Source of the DNA: Candidatus Iainarchaeum sp.
GTDB lineage: Archaea; Iainarchaeota; Iainarchaeia; Iainarchaeales; GCA-2688035
NCBI GenBank assembly: GCA_017610205.1
Contig: JAFCCL010000001.1
Coordinates: 81,883-145,882 of the forward strand
Length of the DNA: 64,000 bases
Reading direction: 5' to 3'
Shown: positions 3,905 through 48,950 of the stretch, one piece after another
How positions within the stretch are numbered: the stretch's first letter is position 1
How the letters are laid out: the number at the start of each line of letters is the position of its first letter
Position numbers and translations under genes: made by a program
The notes under the pieces: generated by a model
Databases searched by the model: none
The model's input: the letters and a program-made list of their open reading frames with translations, nothing else
Told to the model about the DNA's origin: nothing

Positions 3905-4504
3905 TTATTTAAATTTTGCTTTGGTTTTTTCCGATATAATTTTTGTCAGCCCTTCTTTTATTATAATACCTGATAACACAATAGGTAACATTCCTGTTGT
4001 CAAAATTATTTTAGTGTAAAATAAACCTTTTCCTATTTTCTTTTTTAATTTTATTTTTGCCCTGTTAATTTTAGGGTGTTTGGTTTTGTGATAATATGAC
4101 CCTTCTTTCAAAATTGTTTGAAATTCTTTTTTTGTTTTGACCGGGGTATAACAATAATCCGGGACTTTTGTATAAAATTTTTTTTCTCCAACTGGAAAAT
4201 AAGCAATTGTGACAACTTTTAAAAGTAATCCTTCTAATACTACTGTTGAAATTCCTTTGTATGCAATTGTAACATTCAAATTTGCTTCAAGCATTTGCTT
4301 ATACAGTTTTGTTGTATTATCCAAGTAAACTCTCATGCCTTTTTTTTTGATATATGTTTTAATCTGTTTTTCGTTGCTACTTTTATGCAGCCTTACTGTT
4401 ATTTCTATATTTTTATCATTTAATTCTGAAATATCTTCGAGAGTTTTTGCAATTGGTTCAAAACCAGCGCAAGTTATGATTAAAACTTTGTACATTTTTT
4501 TCAC
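3905..4504 (-). CDS. hypothetical protein (Rossmann-like N-terminus; glycan-cluster associated)
   Basis: 199-aa ORF with good coding potential and a 4-nt overlap with the downstream PHP gene. I recognise no family. Confidence 0.3.
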   Translation of the reverse strand: MKKMYKVLIITCAGFEPIAKTLEDISELNDKNIEITVRLHKSSNEKQIKTYIKKKGMRVYLDNTTKLYKQMLEANLNVTIAYKGISTVVLEGLLLKVVTIAYFPVGEKKFYTKVPDYCYTPVKTKKEFQTILKEGSYYHKTKHPKINRAKIKLKKKIGKGLFYTKIILTTGMLPIVLSGIIIKEGLTKIISEKTKAKFK

Positions 4505-5400
4505 CTTTTATTTTCAAAACTTTTTAAGTTCAATGTTAACTGCGATGATTTTTTAATTTTTTTGAGAACCGAATCTGGAATTGTAACTGAATTAATTGTT
4601 TGCCTATCGCCCCCATGAAAATCGCTTCCTCCTGATTCAAGCAGGTTTTTTTCTTTTGCAATTTTCTGGAAAAATTTTATTATTTTCGTGTTTTCTTTTT
4701 TATCAATTTTTAATCTTGGGCAAATTATATAGTAAGGGTAATATGTTTCAATTCCTTGTCCTCCTTGTTTTTTAAAAAACTCGATTAATTTGATAGCCTT
4801 TTCTTTTGGAAAAATTCCAGGATGTGCAAGAAATGTTGTGCCACCAGCTTTTTTTATTATTGTTATTGCTTCTTTAATTCCTGACTTTGATTCCCTGTCA
4901 ACATAGGCTGGTTTGCCTGCTCCTAAATATTTTTCAAAAGCTTCTCTGATTGAGTGGATTTTGTTAGGGTATTTTTTCATAAGTAGCATGGCTATATGCG
5001 GTCTTCCCAATGTTCCTTTTACTCCTGATTTTAGTTCTTCAAAACTTATGTCGAAGCCAAGTTTTTGCAATTTTTTTACAATTTTTTTCTTTTGCTCAAG
5101 CCTGTCCTGTTTTGCCTTTTTGACAAATTTGTTTAGTTCATTGTTTTTGTAATCAACAAATAATCCAACAACTTCCGCTTCTTTGAATCCGTGTTTTTCT
5201 TCGTCGCAATTTATTTCTATTCCTGGAATAATCTCGATTCCTTTGCCTTTTGCATATTTGACAGCTGGTACAATGCCACTTATTGTATCGTGGTCTGTTA
5301 TAGCTATGGCATTAAGGCCTTTTTTTAATGACAGTTTAACCAATTCTTCTGGTGAAAGCCTTCCGTCTGAAGCTGTTGTGTGCATATGCAAATCTACCAT
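4501..5400 (-). CDS. PHP-domain metal-dependent phosphoesterase (TrpH/YciV-like); candidate 3',5'-bisphosphate nucleotidase (pAp phosphatase)
   Basis: N-terminal VDLHMHTTASDGRLSPEELV matches the PHP motif (DLHxHTxxSDG). The pAp-phosphatase role is inferred from the neighbouring APS kinase and sulfotransferase and from the known PHP-family Cv1693-type enzyme. Confidence 0.75.
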   Translation of the reverse strand: MVDLHMHTTASDGRLSPEELVKLSLKKGLNAIAITDHDTISGIVPAVKYAKGKGIEIIPGIEINCDEEKHGFKEAEVVGLFVDYKNNELNKFVKKAKQDRLEQKKKIVKKLQKLGFDISFEELKSGVKGTLGRPHIAMLLMKKYPNKIHSIREAFEKYLGAGKPAYVDRESKSGIKEAITIIKKAGGTTFLAHPGIFPKEKAIKLIEFFKKQGGQGIETYYPYYIICPRLKIDKKENTKIIKFFQKIAKEKNLLESGGSDFHGGDRQTINSVTIPDSVLKKIKKSSQLTLNLKSFENKR

Positions 5401-6023
5401 GTTTTTTCATCCTCTAGAATTTTAATCAATCTAACTGAAAGAATTTCAAGCCTTTTTTTTGGAATGTAAATTTTTTCAACAGGTTTCATTTTTACAAAAC
5501 TTTTTCCTGTTTTGTCATTGAATTCCTTTTTTTTCCCAAAAGAACTGTCAACAGTATAAGGCTGTCCTATATTTCCACTGAACGGGAAAATTTTTATGTG
5601 CAAATGCTCTTTTTTCTCTTTCCAGTTTGTGCATTTTCCATAAGTTGCTATTGAAATTGCAGAATACTTTGATTTAGCTGTTAGCTTGAATTTCTTGCTT
5701 TCTTCCGCCATTACTTTTGCCATTGCATGGTTTAGTTTTGCAAAGGCAATTCCATAGTTTTTTGCAAGTTTTGAATATTTTAAAAGTTGGGCAAAGTGTG
5801 TTAAATGTGAAAATGGCATGAGTTGTAGGCTGAAATCTTTTTCTAAACCCCCTGTTTTTGGAGACAATGTTGCAAACCACCCGTCTTCAGTTCCTGTTCC
5901 AATTCTGAATACAATTATAGATCCGTAATCAGTTTTTTTTCCTGTTTCAAGAGATGCTTCTTTGCACAAATTGCAACTTTTTTTTTGTTCAATGCTTTCT
6001 CCAACAAGTTTTTCTATTGCCAT
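5394..6023 (-). CDS. HIT/GalT-superfamily-like nucleotide hydrolase/transferase, atypical (HxHxK instead of HxHxH/Q)
   Basis: An N-terminal CNLC pair resembles the GalT zinc site. EHLHIKIFPF resembles the HIT histidine-triad position with the third His replaced by Lys. Confidence 0.35.
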   Translation of the reverse strand: MAIEKLVGESIEQKKSCNLCKEASLETGKKTDYGSIIVFRIGTGTEDGWFATLSPKTGGLEKDFSLQLMPFSHLTHFAQLLKYSKLAKNYGIAFAKLNHAMAKVMAEESKKFKLTAKSKYSAISIATYGKCTNWKEKKEHLHIKIFPFSGNIGQPYTVDSSFGKKKEFNDKTGKSFVKMKPVEKIYIPKKRLEILSVRLIKILEDEKTW

Positions 6024-6024
6024 A

Positions 6025-7107
6025 TTAAATTACCTTTATGAATTCTTTTTCCCGCTGGTCTGTTAAATATGAATCAAAATAGCCTGTTACAATACGGTGA
6101 TATGGATTTCCATTTTTTGGCTTAACTTTTTCAAGAATGCCGCATGCCCTTATTTTTTCTCCTGCATATGCCAGTTGGCTGTAGTCTCTTGAGTAAAACA
6201 CAACTTTTTCAACATTGCAGTCTTTGTCTGAATCAATTAACTTTGAATCTGTTAAGGTATAACATCCTGGTCTTACAACTGAACTGTGGTGGTCTTTTAC
6301 TGTCCCTTCAACTGTTGCCAGTCCGCATGAGGAATATTTTTCTTCTCCCCATTTAAACCAAACTTCTTCTTTTTTTTCTGCTGCAAAAATTACAAAAAGC
6401 AGGTTATCAAAATATCCTTCAGATTTTTTTCTTTCAAGCATATGTTTTAGAAATTTTTTTTCATCAAAAATGTTGAACCTGTTCCTTTTTTTGTAAAATT
6501 CAAGCCATTCTTTTTCGTTTTTCCATCTTAAGGATTTATGCCTGGTTTTTTCAAGATATTTCATAAGTTTCCAGAAGTTTTTTTTCCCGTATACAACGAC
6601 ATTTATGTCTGACATATTGTAAACATATTGTCCCATTAGTGTTGAGTAAGTTATTCCAAGGTCTTTAAGTCTGATTCCGCTTTCAAGCAGGAAATTTACA
6701 AATTTGTAGACTGTTGCAAGATGGTTGTCAAGTGCATTTTCAGGCATTGACATAAGTTCAGCAATTCCGGTTCTTGGAAAATAAATTCTTTCAATATCTT
6801 TGTTCTTTGCTAAAAAGAATAATCTTTCATTGTTGTGGAATTCGCTTTGGAAAATGTGGTTTGGATATGCCTTTTTGAATTTGTCAATATACTGAACAAG
6901 GCTGTTTTTTTCTGCCCACAGGTTTAGCCTGTTCATTTTTTGACCTGAGATAAAACGGTATTGCAGTGAATCACATTCTATTTTGTCTGTTGGAATGTAT
7001 TTTGGCTTTACTAAAATGCCCTGTTCAGGGTGCTGGTTTCCATAAACCTGACAATGAAGTCCGTCTTTTGTTGTTATCATTGATGACTCGTAGAAATGCA
7101 TTTTCAA
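6025..7107 (-). CDS. Pol-beta-superfamily nucleotidyltransferase-like protein, paralog A (motif SDIN, predicted catalytically altered)
   Basis: Clearly homologous over its full length to the adjacent ORF 7104..8204. It shares the N-terminal HFYES...KPKYIP block and the C-terminal VRPG.Y...ACG.LE.VKPK...YR.V.GYFD.YL..REKEFIK block. The central ITYSTLMGQYVYNMSDINVVVYG matches the hG[GS]-x(9-13)-[DE]h[DE]h nucleotidyltransferase motif with the second carboxylate replaced by Asn. Confidence 0.5.
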   Translation of the reverse strand: MKMHFYESSMITTKDGLHCQVYGNQHPEQGILVKPKYIPTDKIECDSLQYRFISGQKMNRLNLWAEKNSLVQYIDKFKKAYPNHIFQSEFHNNERLFFLAKNKDIERIYFPRTGIAELMSMPENALDNHLATVYKFVNFLLESGIRLKDLGITYSTLMGQYVYNMSDINVVVYGKKNFWKLMKYLEKTRHKSLRWKNEKEWLEFYKKRNRFNIFDEKKFLKHMLERKKSEGYFDNLLFVIFAAEKKEEVWFKWGEEKYSSCGLATVEGTVKDHHSSVVRPGCYTLTDSKLIDSDKDCNVEKVVFYSRDYSQLAYAGEKIRACGILEKVKPKNGNPYHRIVTGYFDSYLTDQREKEFIKVI

Positions 7108-8204
7108 ATCTCCGCTTTTATGAATTCTTTTTCCCTTCTCTCACTTAGGTAAGCATCAAAATATCCTATGACTACTCTGTAATATTTTTCCTCATGCTTT
7201 GGTTTGACAAGTTCAAGTAAACCGCAGGCTGTAATTGTTTCTCCTTTCAAAGCCTGTTGTACAAAAGGAATTGAATATGTTACAATTCTTTTTATTGGAA
7301 TTGCATTGTCAATTTTGGGTGTTTTGTGGTTGCCTTCTATTAACTTTGTTTTTTCCACTTCATAAAAGCCAGGTCTTACATGGCTGTTATAATGGTCGCT
7401 TACAATTGCTTTTATTGTTGCAAGTCCTTTTGGCTCATATTCTGCTTCTTCCCATTTGAACCATGTTTCTTCCTGTTCTTCAACAGTGAAAAGAGTAAAA
7501 ACTGTTTCTCCAAATAATCCTTCATATTTTTTTCTTTTCATATGTTTTACATATTCTTTCTCTGTAAAGTGTGAAGATTCAGATGTCTTATGTTCTTTGT
7601 AATATTCTGTCCATTCCTTGTCAGTTTTCCATTTGAGCTTTTCATGCTTTGCTTTTTTCAAAAAATCAAGTATTTTCCACCCATTTTCCTTTCCATAAAT
7701 TATCATGTCAATGTCAGACTTTCCAAAGGTGTAATTTCCAAGCAATGTTGAATGCGTTATTCCCATACTTTCAGATTTTACTCCGCTTTTTTCAAGCAGT
7801 TTAACTAATTCAATTACTAGTTTTAAATATCGGTCCAAATTCTTTTCTGGAACCTGAAGCAATTCCTGCAATCCCTTTCTTCCGTCATGTACTGTTTTTA
7901 TTTTGCTTTTTGGAACTACATAAAACCAGTTTTTGTGCAAAGGGCAATCATAGATATATTCCGGAAACTTTTTTTTGAATTCGTTTACGTATCCTTCAAG
8001 TTTGTTTTTTGGTGCAAACTGGTTAAATCTTACAAGGCATTTTTCAAACAAAAACCGGTATTTTAATCCTTTTCCAGAAATTGAATCTTTTGGAATATAT
8101 TTTGGCTTTACTATTACAAACCCTTCAGGATGTTCGTTTGCATAGGATTTGCATTGAAAGCCGTCAACAGTGTCTATTAGGGTTGATTCATAAAAATGTG
8201 GCAT
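7104..8204 (-). CDS. Pol-beta-superfamily nucleotidyltransferase-like protein, paralog B (intact GKSDIDMIIYG motif)
   Basis: The central ITHSTLLGNYTFGKSDIDMIIYG fits the minimal nucleotidyltransferase fold motif. The ~140-aa N-terminal and ~150-aa beta-rich C-terminal domains are not assignable from memory. It overlaps paralog A by 4 nt. Confidence 0.5.
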   Translation of the reverse strand: MPHFYESTLIDTVDGFQCKSYANEHPEGFVIVKPKYIPKDSISGKGLKYRFLFEKCLVRFNQFAPKNKLEGYVNEFKKKFPEYIYDCPLHKNWFYVVPKSKIKTVHDGRKGLQELLQVPEKNLDRYLKLVIELVKLLEKSGVKSESMGITHSTLLGNYTFGKSDIDMIIYGKENGWKILDFLKKAKHEKLKWKTDKEWTEYYKEHKTSESSHFTEKEYVKHMKRKKYEGLFGETVFTLFTVEEQEETWFKWEEAEYEPKGLATIKAIVSDHYNSHVRPGFYEVEKTKLIEGNHKTPKIDNAIPIKRIVTYSIPFVQQALKGETITACGLLELVKPKHEEKYYRVVIGYFDAYLSERREKEFIKAEI

Positions 8205-8340
8205 TGATTCACCTTAATCCTGATTAAAAAAATGTGGTTCGCAATTGTTTTAAAACACTGTTTTTTTATCTTTGTACTACTTGAAAAATGTTGTTCTATT
8301 AAAAGGATTATGACTATAAAAATTGTAAAGTAGTGATCTA

Positions 8341-8877
8341 ATGAACGTAAAATCTGGTACAATCTGGTTTTCGGGTTTACATGGTTCTGGAAAAACAACT
8401 ATTGCAAAAGCCATTTCTGAAAAACTTAGATTTAATGGCATAAAAGTTGTTGTATTGGATGGTGATGAATTGAGAAAAGGTCTTTCGGCAGACCTTAACT
8501 ATTCTTTGGAAGAACGCAACAAGCACTTAAAAAGGGTTGCAAACATCTGCAAGATTATTTCAGAAAATGATGTTTTGAATATTGCCTGTGTTGCTTCCCC
8601 AACTGAAAAAAGTAGAACTTATGCAAAAGGAATCATTTCTAATTTTTTTGAAGTTTATATTAAATGTCCTCTACAAGTGTGTGAACAAAGAGATGTCAAA
8701 GGACATTATAAACGTGCAAGGGCTGGAGAAGCTGGTTTTGAAAACTTTTTGGGAATAAATCTTACATTTGAAGAGCCAAAATCAGCAGATTTTGTTCTTG
8801 AAACCGACAAAGAGCCTGTTAATAATTCAGTTGAAAAGCTCTTCAATAAGATTTTGGAAAAAAACTGGCTCAAGTAA
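8341..8877 (+). CDS. cysC: Adenylylsulfate (APS) kinase
   Basis: WFSGLHGSGKTTIA P-loop and overall similarity to CysC; about 178 aa. It is divergently transcribed from the nucleotidyltransferase pair. Confidence 0.85.
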   Translation: MNVKSGTIWFSGLHGSGKTTIAKAISEKLRFNGIKVVVLDGDELRKGLSADLNYSLEERNKHLKRVANICKIISENDVLNIACVASPTEKSRTYAKGIISNFFEVYIKCPLQVCEQRDVKGHYKRARAGEAGFENFLGINLTFEEPKSADFVLETDKEPVNNSVEKLFNKILEKNWLK

Positions 8878-8892
8878 TAATATTTATCTTTT

Positions 8893-9858
8893 TCAATTTT
8901 TTTCCCATTTTTCTTCATATTGTTTTCCAAGTTCTAAAATAGCAGAATAGCATTCTTTGCTTGAATTTTTCTTTATAACATCTATTTTTTCTTTCCGTTC
9001 TGTTTTTGGATGTGGAATAAAACGTTCTTTTGCCATTAATAATTTCATTTCCGGTGTTATTTTTCTTTTCAAAAAATTTGAAATCTTTTCAAGTTCTGGT
9101 TCTGGTTTTGTTGACAATAATTCATATGTAAGAAAATGTATTCTTTTGCTATAGTTGTCAGGCAGTTTTTTTAAAGATTTTATACTCATTTTGTTCAAAG
9201 TTTGCATTGATGTGATTATTCGGTCCATTTCTGACATTTTTGCATATTTATCAGTCCATTGGTATGCAAACCATGGTACTGGTCCATTTTTTCCTTTTAT
9301 TGGAATGCTAAATACTTTTGGGTCTTTGCCCCATCTTTTTCCATAACCTCTTTTAAACCAAGAGTATGTTAGATCAACAGGGTTTCTTTTGATTTTAATT
9401 ACTTTTAATTTTGGGTAAATATCAAAAAAGAGTTTTATATTTGACATGGCTTCATGCAAAACAAACGGAAAAATTTTTTCGCTTTTTTTTATTTTTTGCA
9501 CTGCTGAATCACCGTCTTCTTCAAATAATCGTTTCATATAACTATCTGCCTTTGGAGAATTAGTGATGCTGCTTTTGTCAGAAAAACGAAAATTAAGATT
9601 TCGGCCAATTACCCTGTTATAAACAAAGTTATCAATTTGGCTTCCGATAATGGCTTTTGCAGTTTCTTTTTCAATAAATCCAAGCATATTTAGTTGTGAA
9701 ATTTGTTCAGGTATACTAAAATACAGGAATTTTTCGACATTTTCAAATCCTTCGATTAGGTTTGCTAAAAACATTTTTCCTGCTCTGGTGTGCCCGTCAA
9801 GAAAAATAATATTTTCAACAAGTTTTGCTCTTTCACTTAAATGAATTTCTTTTGACAT
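8893..9858 (-). CDS. PAPS-dependent sulfotransferase (glycan/lipid sulfotransferase family)
   Basis: A 5'-PSB-like FLDGHTRAGKMF motif and a strong 3'-PB motif, KRNPVDLTYSWF (RxPxDxxxS). It is convergent with and adjacent to cysC. Confidence 0.55.
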   Translation of the reverse strand: MSKEIHLSERAKLVENIIFLDGHTRAGKMFLANLIEGFENVEKFLYFSIPEQISQLNMLGFIEKETAKAIIGSQIDNFVYNRVIGRNLNFRFSDKSSITNSPKADSYMKRLFEEDGDSAVQKIKKSEKIFPFVLHEAMSNIKLFFDIYPKLKVIKIKRNPVDLTYSWFKRGYGKRWGKDPKVFSIPIKGKNGPVPWFAYQWTDKYAKMSEMDRIITSMQTLNKMSIKSLKKLPDNYSKRIHFLTYELLSTKPEPELEKISNFLKRKITPEMKLLMAKERFIPHPKTERKEKIDVIKKNSSKECYSAILELGKQYEEKWEKN

Positions 9859-9994: not shown

Positions 9995-11779
9995 CTATTT
10001 TAACAATCTGATAATTCTTTCAGTTGCTTTTCCATCCTGTTTAAATCCAAATTCATATAAAAATTTGGCTACTTTTTTTTCATGGGCTTTTTTGTTATCT
10101 TTTTCTTTCAAAAACTTTTGAATTGATTTCTTAAAGTTGTCTTTTTTTCCGGTAATTCTTTTAATTCCTTCAAAAAGAGTCTGGTCTTTAGTTTTTCTAT
10201 AGATTGCTGTTGGCTTTTTTAAAGCCATTGCTTCAAGACCAATAATTGGTGAAATGGCTATTACTGCATCTGCACAGTTAATAAGCCGATGTAAATCTGT
10301 TTTATTTAAAAGAATTGCCTTTCCTTTGCTGTTTGTTATTATTTTAGCATAATCTTTTTTGTTTTCAAATGCGTGGATTTTAATAACAAGTTTTGTATTT
10401 TTGATTTCTTTTACTGCTTCCATTGCTGCAGAAGCAATTTCAATTGGCAAAACTTTGTTTTTTTCAACTGGTTGGGTTACAAGTACCACCAACTTTTCTT
10501 TTTTGGAAACACCAATGCTTTTTCTAAAAGAATACCCGTTGGTTTTCTTGTTATACAAAACATCAAAGCGCGGAGACCCTGTAATAGAAATTTTTTTGCC
10601 AGGGACCATTTTTTTTTCCAAATTTTTTTTGTAATGAGGTCCCCAAACAGCAATTTTGTCTGCTACAACTGGTGCAAACCCCCTTATGAAATCAGGTTGG
10701 TTTGTGTTTGCGCTGAAAAGTCCGTGTTGTACAACCACGCTTTTTGCATTAATTTTTTTTGCAAGAAGTACACAAATTCTTTCAAATGGAATCCAATCTT
10801 CCCAAACAACAACTGCACACGGCTTTTTTTCCTTAAACTCTTTCAAAAGCATTTCAATAAGGAAAACAAATTCTGGCCAGTCCCTTTCACTAAAGCGTGG
10901 CATGAATTTGAAAAAAACATCTGCGAAGTTAATGTCATTAAAAACCATTTTTTTTCTAAATTTTGATTTTTCAGAAAGTTCTTTGAAAAGTCCTTTGAAA
11001 AAAATTCTTTTTTCTTTTTTTGTTTTTACAAATCTTTTTGCATTCCATGGCATTAAAATTTTTCTTACAACAAAGTTGTCAAGTGAACTAACTGAAAAAC
11101 TATTGTTTTTTTCAACTTCTTTTGAAAAGCGGTCTAGATAGCCATTACTTTTTACAAAAACAATATCTGCTCCGTTTTTTATGATTATTTTTTCTTTCAA
11201 AATTGAAAAAACTTTTTTTTGAAAATCTGCAATTTTTTTCTTGTTAAAATTTAATTTTCTTTTTTTTTCTAATGGTTGTTCTATTTCAATTTCTTTAAAT
11301 CTTGCAGATGTTGCTTTTGCAACTGCCTTTGCGCAGTCACTTGAAAAACTGTCTTTAATGCCAATAAAAGTTTTGGTTTTTTCACACTTTGCGGCATTAA
11401 TGCCTGAGTTTATTGCAAGGAAAGTTTGTCTAAAAAGGTTGTAAATTGCAAAATCTGAAACAAAACCAAGTGAAATTTCTTTCATTGTGCTTGCCTGTTC
11501 GATTTTTTTGTCAAATTTGTACCAATTTCTTGAAAAAAACAATGCCTTTTTATTAATAAAATAAAGTTCTCTATCTGAAACAAGGTCTGTTTCTTCAAAA
11601 ACTTTAATGTTTTTTGCAAAAATTCTTTGCCCTGGCCAAAATTCAAGACAAATGCATTTTATTATTACATTTGGTTTTTTTGCAGCAAATTTGAGAACTC
11701 CATCAAATTCTTTTCTGTTTGAAGCAAACGCAATAATGTTTTCCATTTTTTTTCTGTTTGAAGAAGTGATTTTTTCCAT
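9995..11779 (-). CDS. GT-B-fold polysaccharide biosynthesis protein (CDP-glycerol glycerophosphotransferase TagF / KpsC-like)
   Basis: 594 aa. The C-terminal half has a VVQHGLF...WGPHY...ITGSPRFD...KIHAFEN pattern reminiscent of the TagF/Glyphos_transf and capsule-biosynthesis families. Confidence 0.4.
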   Translation of the reverse strand: MEKITSSNRKKMENIIAFASNRKEFDGVLKFAAKKPNVIIKCICLEFWPGQRIFAKNIKVFEETDLVSDRELYFINKKALFFSRNWYKFDKKIEQASTMKEISLGFVSDFAIYNLFRQTFLAINSGINAAKCEKTKTFIGIKDSFSSDCAKAVAKATSARFKEIEIEQPLEKKRKLNFNKKKIADFQKKVFSILKEKIIIKNGADIVFVKSNGYLDRFSKEVEKNNSFSVSSLDNFVVRKILMPWNAKRFVKTKKEKRIFFKGLFKELSEKSKFRKKMVFNDINFADVFFKFMPRFSERDWPEFVFLIEMLLKEFKEKKPCAVVVWEDWIPFERICVLLAKKINAKSVVVQHGLFSANTNQPDFIRGFAPVVADKIAVWGPHYKKNLEKKMVPGKKISITGSPRFDVLYNKKTNGYSFRKSIGVSKKEKLVVLVTQPVEKNKVLPIEIASAAMEAVKEIKNTKLVIKIHAFENKKDYAKIITNSKGKAILLNKTDLHRLINCADAVIAISPIIGLEAMALKKPTAIYRKTKDQTLFEGIKRITGKKDNFKKSIQKFLKEKDNKKAHEKKVAKFLYEFGFKQDGKATERIIRLLK

Positions 11780-15796: not shown

Positions 15797-16894
15797 TTAT
15801 TCCCTCAAAATTATTTCAACAATCTTCTGGCTTGTCTTTCCGTCTCCAAAAGGGCATGGCTCTTTTTCAAGTCTTTTCTTCAATTCAGGGTAATTTTCCA
15901 TTGCCTTTTTGCTTTCTTCAACTATTTTTTCTTTGCAGTAGCCTGTCAGTCTTCCAAACTTTTCTAATATTTCTGGTCGTTCTGTATTGTCTCTTAGAAT
16001 AACAATCCATTTTTTGTAAACGCTTGCCTCTTCCTGAATGCCTCCGCTGTCCGACAGCAAAAACATTGCGTTGCTTGCAAGCTTTAGAAAATCAAAATAG
16101 CCAGCTGGCTCAATAAACTGCAGGTTTGGAATTGCTTTTGCTTTTTTAAGCAAGTTAAATGCCGTAAGGTTCTTCAAAGTTCTTGGATGGGCAGGGAACA
16201 CGACCTTTATGTCAATTTCTGCGATTGCTGAAAGTAATTCTTCCAAATTTTCTTTTTTGTCAACATATTCCTGTCTGTGGGCTGTAAGAACTGCATATTT
16301 TTCCGGCGTTAACCCAAGTGTTTCAAGAATTTTTGAGTCTTTTGCCTTTTCAAGGTTTTTTTGCACTGCTTCAACTATTGTGTTGCCTGTTAGGAAAATC
16401 TTGGCTTCCTCTATTTTATCATCCTGCAAATGTTTTACTGCAATATCTGTTGGGGCAAAAGCATAATCTGCAAGTTTGTCTGCTTCAATCCTGTTTTTTT
16501 CTTCCGGCATTCTTTCATCAAAGCTTCTTAGCCCTGCTTCAACATGGGCAAATTTTGTGCCTATATCTTTTGCTGCAAGGGCTGCTGCAAGAACACTGTT
16601 TGTGTCCCCTTCTGCAATCACAATTTCTGGTTTTTCTTTTAAAAAAAACTCACCCAGCTTTTTTTCCATTAGTGTAACCTGTTTTTCATTGCCTCCGCCG
16701 CTTATTCCTAAATTTATGTCAATTTTTGGCAGTTCAAGTTCTTCCATAAAAATCTGGCAAAGGTTGTAATCATAATGCTGTCCTGTGAAAGCAATTACTG
16801 TTTTTGCTTCATGATGTTCTTTTAAAAGTCTTATGAGCTCTGCGAGTTTTATTATTTCTGGTCTTGTTCCAAGGACAATTGCAATTTTTTTCAA
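15797..16894 (-). CDS. wecB: UDP-N-acetylglucosamine 2-epimerase (non-hydrolysing)
   Basis: N-terminal KIAIVLGTRPEIIKLAELI and full-length WecB/MnaA-like similarity over 365 aa. Confidence 0.85.
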   Translation of the reverse strand: MKKIAIVLGTRPEIIKLAELIRLLKEHHEAKTVIAFTGQHYDYNLCQIFMEELELPKIDINLGISGGGNEKQVTLMEKKLGEFFLKEKPEIVIAEGDTNSVLAAALAAKDIGTKFAHVEAGLRSFDERMPEEKNRIEADKLADYAFAPTDIAVKHLQDDKIEEAKIFLTGNTIVEAVQKNLEKAKDSKILETLGLTPEKYAVLTAHRQEYVDKKENLEELLSAIAEIDIKVVFPAHPRTLKNLTAFNLLKKAKAIPNLQFIEPAGYFDFLKLASNAMFLLSDSGGIQEEASVYKKWIVILRDNTERPEILEKFGRLTGYCKEKIVEESKKAMENYPELKKRLEKEPCPFGDGKTSQKIVEIILRE

Positions 16895-18336
16895 GCAACA
16901 ACCCCCTTTTCAAAAATTTCTTCCAAAATTCGTCCATCAAGTCCTTTTGGTTGTTTTACTTTCATAAGTTTCATTATTGTTGGAGCCAAATCAAATATGC
17001 TTGCCTTGCCTGCATCAAATCCTTTTTTTATTCCGTTGCCTTTTACTATAAAAACTCCGTCTTTGTGGTGTGTCGCAATCCATCTGCTTCCAAGTTCAAA
17101 TATTTCCTTGCCTCCAAGCGGGCTGCAGACTTCGCACCATGGTTTTGCAAGTGTTATTAGGTCAGGTGCTTTGTCTAAATAAGGTCCGTTGTAAATTTCT
17201 TCTTTTGAAAAAATTTTTTCAATTACTGTGTCGCCTGTTCCAGGAAGTCTTACTTCCAAAAGCTTTTCTTTAATCTCTTTTGCAATATGCTTTCGTTCCA
17301 CTTCTGAAAGATTTGGATTTATATAAAAGAGATTGCTTGCGTGGCTGATTACTTTACTTTTTTTCCAGTCAAACAAATATCCTTTGGCTTCGCCTCCGAT
17401 TAAACCATGGCTTGACTTGATTTTCTTAGTTACCTTTGCAGGAACAAGTTTTTTTACAATTTTTTCAAGACCGAGTTTTTTAAGAAGTCCAACTGCTGTT
17501 TCTTTGTTAATTCCCAATTTAAACAATGTGTTTGTCATACCCTCTTTTGTTTTTTGATAACCTTCTTTTTGCAGCCATATATTTGCCAAAAACATTGCCT
17601 TTAGTCTTGCAAAGCCATGGTCTGACATTATAATAAAAGTACAGTCCCTGCCTGCCTTCTGCATTGTTTTTCCAATGCATTCGTCAATTTTTTTGAAAAT
17701 CTTTTTGGAAAAGTCGTCATTCCAGTAAAAATGCATAATGTAATCTGTGAAAACAATTGTAAGATGCAAAAAGTCTGCTTTGTCAAGGTTTGCGTCCAAA
17801 ATGTCAAACCTTGTTTCAATCAATGAAAAAATCTCATCTTTTAGTTCGTCTGTAGGCAAATCAAGCCTGCCTTCAACGTCTGGTTTGTAGTTAAATTTTT
17901 CTTTGAGTTCTTTTTGAAGTTTTTTTGGATATGTGTAATTGTCATAATTTGGCGGTTCAATGCTTCCAATCATAAAACCGTTGATTTTTTTTGGAGGATA
18001 TGTTGTTGGCATGTCAATTACACCAACCTTTTTTCCTGCTGCTCCCAAATAATCCCAAATTTCTTTGCTTTTGTAATTTGTTGAATCAACCGGTGTAATT
18101 TTTCCGCTCTCAAAATCAATATCTGTTCTTGAGAACACCCCAAGCTTGGCTGCATTCTTTCCCGTGCTGTAATATTTCCAGGCAGGGCAGGTAAGTGGTG
18201 GTGTTTGTGTTTCCAAAATGCCCGCGCTTCCTTCTTTAACCATTTTTGCAAGGTTTGGAAGTTCATTTCTTTCAACCCACGGTTTTAGAATTTTCCAGGT
18301 AACCCCATCCAATCCAATTACTACAACTTTTGCCAT
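16891..18336 (-). CDS. Alkaline-phosphatase-superfamily type I phosphodiesterase / nucleotide pyrophosphatase (NPP family)
   Basis: VVIGLDGVTW ... TPPLTCPAWKYYSTG matches the NPP catalytic-Thr region. It is not a sulfatase: the CxPxR motif is absent. Confidence 0.65.
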   Translation of the reverse strand: MAKVVVIGLDGVTWKILKPWVERNELPNLAKMVKEGSAGILETQTPPLTCPAWKYYSTGKNAAKLGVFSRTDIDFESGKITPVDSTNYKSKEIWDYLGAAGKKVGVIDMPTTYPPKKINGFMIGSIEPPNYDNYTYPKKLQKELKEKFNYKPDVEGRLDLPTDELKDEIFSLIETRFDILDANLDKADFLHLTIVFTDYIMHFYWNDDFSKKIFKKIDECIGKTMQKAGRDCTFIIMSDHGFARLKAMFLANIWLQKEGYQKTKEGMTNTLFKLGINKETAVGLLKKLGLEKIVKKLVPAKVTKKIKSSHGLIGGEAKGYLFDWKKSKVISHASNLFYINPNLSEVERKHIAKEIKEKLLEVRLPGTGDTVIEKIFSKEEIYNGPYLDKAPDLITLAKPWCEVCSPLGGKEIFELGSRWIATHHKDGVFIVKGNGIKKGFDAGKASIFDLAPTIMKLMKVKQPKGLDGRILEEIFEKGVVA

Positions 18337-48831: not shown

Positions 48832-48950
48832 GATTAGCAGCTTTAAGACCGCTCCAAGCAAAAACTCAGTGCAAAACCTTTTCCCCGCAGGTCTTAACTT
48901 CCGGGTTCGAGATGGGACCGGGTGTTTCCCCTGTAGCATGGCCGCTAATC
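48832..48950 (-). rRNA. rrf: 5S ribosomal RNA (unlinked to other rRNA genes in this window)
   Basis: The minus strand reads GAUUAGCGGCCAUGCUACAGGGGAAACACCCGGUCCCAUCUCGAACCCGGAAGUUAAGACCUGCGGGG...GCUGCUAAUCG. The loop-C region is universally conserved. The 5' and 3' ends form a 10-bp helix I (GAUUAGCGGC/GCUGCUAAUC). An oligo-T run follows. Confidence 0.75.

Follow-up and report, generated by a model that had tools for sequence, protein, structure and literature searches.

A conserved glycan-cluster cassette of DPANN archaea with a paired Pol-beta-type nucleotidyltransferase, a candidate for the sulfate-activating step

What reaction is carried out by two adjacent, similar genes of an archaeal surface-glycan cluster that diverge from the gene of an adenosine 5'-phosphosulfate (APS) kinase and lie close to that of a sulfotransferase? 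The question is raised by a stretch of 64,000 nucleotides of Candidatus Iainarchaeum sp. (assembly GCA_017610205.1, contig JAFCCL010000001.1, positions 81,883 to 145,882), hereafter the window. Both genes are on its minus strand, paralogue B at 7104..8204 (366 aa) and paralogue A at 6025..7107 (360 aa if read from a TTG codon, or 358 aa from the ATG at 7101). Their products, which make up a new family within the Pol-beta nucleotidyltransferase (NTase) superfamily, have a three-domain architecture that is likewise new. The genes belong to a cassette that is real, widespread and conserved in DPANN archaea; its function, for which we propose sulfate activation, is inferred from genomic data.

The first-pass annotation, made from the letters of the window, had described the two open reading frames (ORFs) as full-length paralogues, and they do align end to end, with 44% identity across 365 residues (E 9e-116); the motifs it had quoted, GKSDIDMIIYG in B and NMSDINVVVYG in A, are present. 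B retains an intact carboxylate pair (S-D164-I-D166), whereas A reads S-D-I-N169, with the second metal carboxylate replaced. Each protein has three domains, the Pol-beta NTase core being preceded by a beta domain and followed by an OB fold. The core has the minimal alpha/beta fold of NTases, with terminal uridylyl and poly(A) polymerases as its structural matches. The OB fold matches SSB, RPA and the anticodon-binding domains of aminoacyl-tRNA synthetases, and is near neutral (mean net charge approx. -1). The earlier statement that both flanking domains were unassignable thus survives for the N-terminal domain, which remained unmatched, and falls for the C-terminal one. Similarly, the proposed signature hG[GS]...[DE]h[DE]h is followed in part: B has the DxD and the serine is invariant (S152), but the glycine is replaced (T-H-S in B, T-Y-S in A) and A has DxN. 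A candidate third carboxylate is offered by E242 and E246, which are invariant in both paralogues and directly follow the strand 234-241.

Neither A nor B of the window matched PF01909 at the Pfam gathering cut-off. Searches of A, B and the HIT-like ORF downstream of them against Pfam, NCBIfam and, by phmmer, the PDB gave nothing significant, nor did two profile searches (A1 and A3) of PDB sequences. Foldseek with the B model found no PDB entry at E <= 0.001, the whole chain being without a solved counterpart. An exhaustive profile search of 1.84 billion representatives, on the other hand, recovered 887 relatives. Distant full-length ones among them keep the canonical signature G[ST]GS...SD[IL]D and pass PF01909 at the homologous position (P0384 with 29.8 and P0385 with 27.3 bits, cut-off 21); both are tied to A and B by profile search (E 1e-38 to 1e-39). 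Because these relatives pass PF01909 and carry the signature, the NTase assignment holds at the sequence level as well as by fold. TiaS-like, class I CCA-adding, KNTase and MNT-HEPN architectures were rejected, the last three in agreement with the first-pass annotation: a HEPN partner, the KNTase helical domain and the CCA head, neck, body and tail are all absent.

The difference between the two active sites is fixed. Scored over 62 genome loci and in scorable copies only, DxD occurs in 57/57 B-type and DxN in 53/53 A-type copies; the split that had been named at the outset as something to be checked in orthologues is therefore conserved, and a sequencing or strain artefact was rejected as the source of the asparagine. 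Orthologues of each paralogue number in the hundreds and occur in the DPANN lineages Iainarchaeota/Diapherotrites, Woesearchaeota, Nanoarchaeota and Aenigmatarchaeota. Mean identity within the two groups is 62% and 60%, so that constraint is equal, and ten fixed substitutions separate A from B, three of which flank the active site (H151 in B for Y154 in A, D166 for N169, and Y126 for H129). Since the constraint on A matches that on B and its active-site substitutions are fixed, we regard A as a remodelled subunit under selection and rejected the view of it as a decaying pseudogene. The earlier description of an active/inactive pair is accordingly kept as a conserved active/remodelled split and dropped as far as it implied a decaying pseudo-enzyme. 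B is the presumed catalytic subunit and A a presumed non-canonical partner. The distant relatives have DxD in both members of their pairs, which makes DxN a derived feature of the DPANN clade; two loci (L058 and L060) have one DxD copy each, intermediate between A and B. As a side observation, one cassette (L056, JAGXBC010000002.1) lies on a contig binned as Patescibacteria, and many cassette loci are titled 'uncultured Methanosarcinales archaeon'; the labels probably arose because DPANN contigs were binned wrongly or only weakly assigned to a taxon, lateral transfer being the alternative.

Synteny, established by tblastn of the window genes against the loci and by de novo clustering of ORFs, revealed a recurrent gene order: an AlkP-superfamily ('Phosphodiest') gene of approx. 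460 codons, then B, A, a HIT-like gene and a phosphatase gene, with an APS kinase and a membrane protein of about 280 aa as frequent additions. Among the 44 loci with at least 3 kb of downstream sequence, the HIT-like gene was found in 39, a near-canonical prolyl-tRNA synthetase (ProRS) took its place in three, and a phosphatase candidate was present in 39 (31 PHP, five HD and three CysQ-type). Upstream, where 47 loci have at least 2 kb, the AlkP gene adjoins or is fused to B in 26 and is replaced by a truncated pyruvate-kinase-like gene in four. Co-occurrence with cysC had been suggested as a check by the first-pass annotation: APS kinase lies within 10 kb of the pair in 11 of the 28 loci for which 6 kb or more is available on either side, which is far above chance for genomes of roughly 1 Mb. 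In all of the approximately 60 loci the cassette is situated within surface-glycan clusters, surrounded by flippases, glycosyltransferases, epimerases, sugar-1-phosphate nucleotidyltransferases, sulfatases, sulfotransferases and B12-radical-SAM enzymes; the pair has sulfotransferase homologues nearby in L001 and L036-L038, and a PF03567 sulfotransferase in L018.

Gene fusions follow the same order and are partner-specific. At least nine A-type proteins of about 575 aa are fusions of A with the HIT-like protein (residues 372-573 of P0153 are 52% identical to the product of 5394..6023 in the window); AlkP and B form a single polypeptide in L040 (820 aa), L046 (812 aa), L053, L055, L059 and P0362 (approx. 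1090 aa). No AlkP-A or B-HIT fusion was found among the loci and proteins examined. In L046 the whole core is reduced to two polypeptides, AlkP-B and A-HIT with an extra segment. It is chiefly from the specificity of these fusions that we infer an assembly in the order AlkP·B·A·HIT.

Several cassette genes deviate from this scheme. The B-type protein encoded at L045:2531-4411 and its counterpart P0361 (614 aa) have an additional N-terminal extension of about 250 residues, which differs from the AlkP fusion and has no Pfam match; a linker of about 270 residues occurs in the ~1090-aa AlkP-B fusions, and the A-HIT protein of L046 has a C-terminal extension of similar length (~270 residues). The ProRS gene directly follows the NTase gene or genes at L028:12189-13499, L033:6222-7721, L058:11064-12311 and L060:6823-8202. 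It encodes a class-II prolyl-tRNA synthetase that scored 426 and 372 bits with TIGR00408 (cut-off 437), and the lone unduplicated DxD NTases of L058 and L060 accompany it; it may be the housekeeping enzyme or else an adenylate-forming paralogue. The pyruvate-kinase-like gene stands immediately upstream of B at L041:8608-9999, L044:1445-2839, L047:8633-10000 and L049:5398-6810; its product comprises the C-terminal half of the barrel, PK_C and a MarR-like N-terminus (TIGR01064, 186 bits, cut-off 306). The ~280-aa membrane protein (ORF cluster 9) follows the cassette or the APS kinase at L041:14283-15137 and in 17 other loci. Its weak similarity to CDP-alcohol phosphatidyltransferases and archaetidylinositol-phosphate synthase (NF040950, 42.7 bits) is a hint that these glycans also carry a substituent in phosphodiester linkage.

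A stable cassette of NTases and hydrolases might also be thought to serve antiviral signalling in the manner of CD-NTase/OAS systems, the HIT, PHP or HD proteins being effectors or enzymes that degrade the signal. We rejected this explanation, which we hold to be extremely improbable: A, B and the HIT-like protein have no PADLOC match, effector-type domains are absent, and the very high conservation across DPANN lineages together with the stable synteny in glycan clusters is unlike that of defence islands.

Which nucleotides the cassette handles is best judged from its partner enzymes. The gene immediately downstream of A (5394..6023, minus strand, 209 aa) encodes a protein with an N-terminal CxxC and the invariant sequence EKKEHLHxKxFPF, in which the motif H140-L-H142-x-K144-x-F, with lysine in third position, stands at the start of a predicted strand. 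It had been called HIT-like, and it indeed has the alpha+beta HIT fold, with Ap4A (diadenosine tetraphosphate) phosphorylase as the best structural match; a homologue (P0250) is labelled 'HIT domain-containing' in UniRef. No Pfam, NCBIfam or PDB profile matched it; by fold it is a HIT protein, yet it belongs to none of the HIT families defined by sequence. The GalT branch of the HIT superfamily takes in adenylylsulfate:phosphate adenylyltransferases (bioRxiv 10.64898/2026.09.13.751320).

The next gene (4501..5400, minus strand, 299 aa) encodes a PHP-domain phosphoesterase of the TrpH/YciV/Cv1693 type (PF02811, E 2.5e-17; 64 bits, cut-off 26.4). Its best NCBIfam match was NF041577 (3',5'-nucleoside bisphosphate phosphatase) with 168 bits, below the cut-off of 400, followed by RNase RNM with 163; matches in the PDB were 7ug9, 9etk and 2yb1 (the latter with E 4.6e-25), and the best of these is annotated as a 5'-3' exoribonuclease. 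The closest characterised relatives thus belong to the 3',5'-nucleoside bisphosphate phosphatase/RNase AM group, and the protein is a candidate 3'-phosphoadenosine-5'-phosphate (pAp) phosphatase. Where PHP is missing, its slot is taken by a SpoT-like HD hydrolase or an Inositol_P/CysQ-type domain, and next to the pair in L011 and L051 APS kinase and the CysQ-type domain share one polypeptide (in L011 with 182 bits for TIGR00455 and 182 bits for TIGR01331, CysQ). The APS kinase (CysC) of the window itself (8341..8877, plus strand, 178 aa; PF01583, E 4e-46) scored 176.3 bits with TIGR00455, above the equivalog cut-off of 138.7. A reverse search from the APS kinase in metagenomes yielded only five short loci. 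Three unrelated folds in the same slot, all able to remove a nucleotide 3'-phosphate, are in combination with the kinase fusions strong evidence, drawn from gene content, that the module handles adenine nucleotides bearing a 3'-phosphate, of the kind represented by pAp and 3'-phosphoadenosine 5'-phosphosulfate (PAPS).

These partners bear on a further explanation, in which the cassette modifies or repairs the ends of RNA or tRNA. The OB-bearing NTase would add nucleotides to RNA 3' ends, and the HIT protein would remove adenylyl groups as aprataxin does; PHP would be the 5'-3' exoribonuclease, AlkP would dephosphorylate the ends, and the P-loop kinase would phosphorylate polynucleotides. The nucleic-acid-related structural matches of the OB fold and NTase core speak for it, as do the annotation of the top PDB match of PHP and the ProRS-like gene in the place of HIT in three to four loci. 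We consider it very unlikely nevertheless, since the kinase is a bona fide member of the APS-kinase family and occurs joined to a CysQ-type phosphatase, glycan clusters (with flippases, glycosyltransferases, sulfotransferases and sulfatases) are the invariable setting of the cassette, and the OB domain is near neutral.

The distant relatives point away from RNA as well. They share 25-30% identity with A and B over the full length, all have DxD, and are found in other archaea, often as tandem overlapping pairs in cofactor operons. One such pair (349 and 357 aa; L074, 5955-8074) stands between CofD-CofC and CofE of coenzyme F420 biosynthesis, and a relative in Vulcanisaeta (L065, 8001-9089) lies beside a CitG-like gene in a cluster with FTR, Fwd, MCH, Fae and MfnB. 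Another (L072, 5626-7143) is fused to HPPK and followed by pterin-binding genes, and in L073 (5976-8065 and 8615-9628) an ATP-grasp gene precedes the pair. That these contexts, F420, tetrahydromethanopterin (H4MPT) and pterin operons among them, are those of cofactor synthesis and not of RNA supports small-molecule acceptors for the family. PMC6450877 gives the enzyme that generates 2-phospho-L-lactate in F420 biosynthesis as unidentified. The genomic positions of the distant relatives suggest them as candidates for unassigned F420 steps, and the same may apply to H4MPT and methanofuran.

For the DPANN pair, the pathway around it indicates what the small molecule may be. Synthesis and use of PAPS require sulfate adenylylation, an APS kinase, sulfotransferases and a pAp phosphatase, and there is archaeal precedent for the non-homologous replacement of enzymes of this pathway (PMC10322725). 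In or near the cassette all of these steps are recognisable save sulfate adenylylation, and the core of B, A, HIT and AlkP consists of nucleotidyl-transfer enzymes. A six-frame motif scan of the window and 1.03 Mb of related loci found no match to the signatures of Sat (QxRNPxHxxH, GRDHAG) or CysN, in line with the earlier remark that the window contains no ATP sulfurylase; two generic PP-loop matches fell in unrelated genes. Usually, cysC is accompanied by sat or cysDN. Because the other steps of the pathway are recognisable and no Sat or CysN signature occurs in the sequences scanned, we propose sulfate adenylylation for B/A.

It is thus quite possible, although we would stop short of calling it probable, that a B/A heteromer with its HIT and AlkP partners generates APS or an APS-like donor by nucleotidyl transfer. 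A and B would form a heteromeric Pol-beta-type NTase in which B, having the full carboxylate set, is the catalyst; the HIT-fold protein would dock on A, whose site is conserved but remodelled, and the AlkP-like enzyme on B. Paired with A, B would convert ATP and sulfate to APS and pyrophosphate, standing in for ATP sulfurylase. The HIT partner may relay AMP through a covalent His-AMP or handle the product, and the AlkP-like partner may hydrolyse pyrophosphate or a by-product. The changes N169, Y154 and H129 in A would have remodelled the second site for a non-catalytic task, such as binding of acceptor or product or docking of HIT. APS kinase would then convert APS to PAPS, the sulfotransferases of the cluster would sulfate surface glycans, and PHP (in other loci HD or the CysQ-type enzyme) would clear the inhibitory by-product pAp. 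The heteromer, sulfate as acceptor and the role of each partner are all proposals drawn from genomics. The first-pass annotation had speculated about a link to activated sulfate; this gained comparative support from synteny, the A-HIT and AlkP-B fusions, the APS kinase-CysQ fusions and the three phosphatase folds. More doubtful is the wider proposal that B/A with HIT and AlkP represents a previously undescribed, non-homologous class of sulfate-activating enzyme, a Pol-beta heterodimer with a His-AMP relay, which provides PAPS for glycan sulfation in DPANN archaea and belongs to a larger, uncharacterised superfamily of archaea, other branches of which supply missing steps in the synthesis of F420, methanopterin or methanofuran.

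A number of points weigh against sulfate activation by the cassette. Four proteins for one reaction would be lavish. OB folds usually bind nucleic acids, and the near-canonical ProRS in place of HIT in three to four loci is not explained by the model. The heteromer and the docking come from genomic evidence, the predicted model of the fusion having a pTM of 0.62. Of the well-covered loci, only about 40% have APS kinase near the pair and fewer still a recognised sulfotransferase, and the absence of sat pertains to the window and the 1.03 Mb of related loci, not to whole genomes. Two surveys have reported sat/cysN in many DPANN metagenome-assembled genomes (PMC8091004; bioRxiv 10.1101/2020.05.14.094862), calls that may include confusion of EF-1alpha with CysN.

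If the survey calls are right, canonical sat and cysC elsewhere in the genome might supply the sulfonucleotides, and the module could edit, buffer or recycle these or other adenylates (APS, PAPS, pAp, Ap4A), with the NTase pair re-adenylylating or sensing them. Degradation of sulfonucleotides is a known activity of HIT, NPP-type AlkP and PHP proteins alike: APS and Ap4A are hydrolysed or phosphorolysed by HIT enzymes, NPP-type AlkP enzymes cut nucleotide pyrophosphate bonds, and relatives of PHP are pAp phosphatases or nano-RNases. It also fits that linkage to the pair is closer for the phosphatase (39/44) than for APS kinase (11/28). What makes this explanation improbable in our judgement is that the conserved, intact NTase site of B would be left without a role, and that it does not account for a catabolic set fused to NTases in the biosynthetic glycan clusters of about 60 loci.

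The small share of loci with a recognised sulfotransferase would fit a donor that is PAPS-like and whose cargo is not sulfate. B/A would join a nucleoside monophosphate to another anion or a phospho-alcohol, giving a nucleoside diphosphate derivative (NDP-X). After 3'-phosphorylation of NDP-X by the APS-kinase homologue, a transferase would attach X or phospho-X to the glycan, leaving the 3',5'-bisphosphate for the phosphatase to remove. Campylobacter follows the same scheme in its O-methyl-phosphoramidate pathway. Synteny and fusions fit such a route equally well. CDP-glycerol glycerophosphotransferase-like genes are present in the clusters, the CDP-alcohol phosphatidyltransferase-like membrane protein follows the cassette in 18 loci, and the truncated pyruvate-kinase-like protein that stands in the place of AlkP in four could make the anion. 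We rate this route as unlikely but worth keeping in mind, for the kinase passes the APS-kinase equivalog cut-off, the CysQ-type fusions, sulfotransferases and sulfatases point to sulfate, and no genes of the glutamine-kinase or amidohydrolase type were seen.

Sulfate activation remains our preferred explanation. The first-pass annotation had identified the neighbours as an APS kinase, a sulfotransferase and a PHP phosphoesterase, all of which were recovered by Pfam; the sulfotransferase (8893..9858, minus strand, 321 aa; PF00685, E 2.5e-10) is the presumed consumer of the activated donor. The AlkP-superfamily ('Phosphodiest') gene is displaced by about 9 kb from B in this window (16891..18336, minus strand, 481 aa; PF01663, E 5e-37); the Agl7 paper offered no enzyme family that would help to place this partner. 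The genes downstream of the pair are packed in an operon-like manner. At the junction of B and A the sequence reads ...GAG ATT TGA AA ATG CAT TTC, and the overlap of 4 nt initially reported is correct only if A starts at TTG 7107. With the ATG at 7101, which is the start in the public gene call (P0121, 358 aa, 'MHFYES') and in most orthologues, there is instead a gap of 2 nt after the stop of B; coupling is tight under either start. The HIT-like ORF begins 1 nt past A, PHP overlaps it by 7 nt, and an ORF of 199 aa (3905..4504, minus strand) overlaps PHP by 4 nt. This ORF closes the apparent operon in this window alone: it had no counterpart beside the A/B pair in any other locus compared, and its sole match was a weak one to TIGR04396 ('surface carbohydrate biosynthesis protein', E 3.7e-4). 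The divergent intergenic region between B and the APS kinase on the plus strand (8205..8340, 136 bp, AT-rich) is likely a promoter region shared by both genes.

The G+C content is 29-33% in the first ~12 kb, which hold the cassette, APS kinase and sulfotransferase, versus 34-41% in the rest (12001-64000), and B orthologues of nominally different DPANN phyla are 70-87% identical; together these values suggest lateral mobility of a glycan/sulfation island. A protein of 594 aa encoded at 9995-11779 (minus strand) has a C-terminal half with similarity to both UDP-N-acetylglucosamine 2-epimerase (PF02350) and CDP-glycerol glycerophosphotransferase (PF04464), and its homologues recur across related glycan clusters. 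A 5S rRNA gene is present at 48832-48949 (minus strand; RF00001, 68.7 bits), and ARAGORN found no tRNA gene in the 64-kb window.

To our knowledge, only two enzyme designs for sulfate activation, Sat and CysDN, have been established. If our proposal is true, a third, unrelated one would be a notable non-orthologous replacement in a central pathway, would correct metabolic reconstructions of DPANN archaea that show cysC and sulfotransferases without an obvious partner, and would suggest that surface glycans are commonly sulfated in these host-dependent cells. Whatever the substrate, the loci contain a widely conserved module of four to six genes with partner-specific fusions, which is directly testable, and a clean natural case of a catalytic/remodelled NTase pair, whose full-length superfamily (N-terminal domain, NTase and OB fold) extends to the cofactor operons of other archaea.

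The system closest in proposed function is ATP sulfurylase. The predicted net reaction, transfer of AMP from ATP to sulfate upstream of APS kinase, would be the same, and cysC, a pAp phosphatase and sulfotransferases are genomic partners in both cases. A and B are nevertheless not members of Sat or CysDN, whose defining motifs and folds they lack, and can at most be said to possibly work like them: they combine a Pol-beta NTase with an OB fold, unlike the HxxH alpha/beta phosphodiesterase fold of Sat and the PP-loop/GTPase pair of CysDN, and their cassette is apparently multi-component, with a remodelled paralogue and HIT and AlkP partners. From the GalT-branch HIT enzymes, such as the Ap4A phosphorylases Rv2613c and Apa2 and adenylylsulfate:phosphate adenylyltransferase, the cassette protein differs in having no sequence-level family match and a lysine, rather than histidine or glutamine, at the third motif position; it is moreover obligatorily linked or fused to an NTase paralogue, an arrangement that we know of for no other HIT protein.

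Heteromeric or pseudo-enzyme pairs of Pol-beta NTases are represented by NF45/NF90 and MiD49/51, and small-molecule NTases of this superfamily by CitX/MdcG and kanamycin NTase. All of these differ from A/B, which have three domains (the unmatched N-terminal one, NTase and OB). Further differences are that A is under the same constraint as B and that HEPN, PAP/OAS1 substrate-binding and head domains are absent. A likeness of pathway is offered by the O-methyl-phosphoramidate (MeOPN) pathway of Campylobacter jejuni, with the nucleotidyltransferase Cj1416 and the APS-kinase homologue Cj1415, where an NTase and an enzyme of the APS-kinase family in a surface-glycan cluster lead to a 3'-phosphorylated nucleotide donor, as they would here. 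There the NTase has another fold, while the DPANN clusters have no glutamine-kinase-type genes and contain sulfotransferases and CysQ-type phosphatases. We found no earlier description of the A/B family or of the cassette in the searchable literature; the logic of the pathway is already known, and what is new is the enzyme family and its multi-protein organisation.

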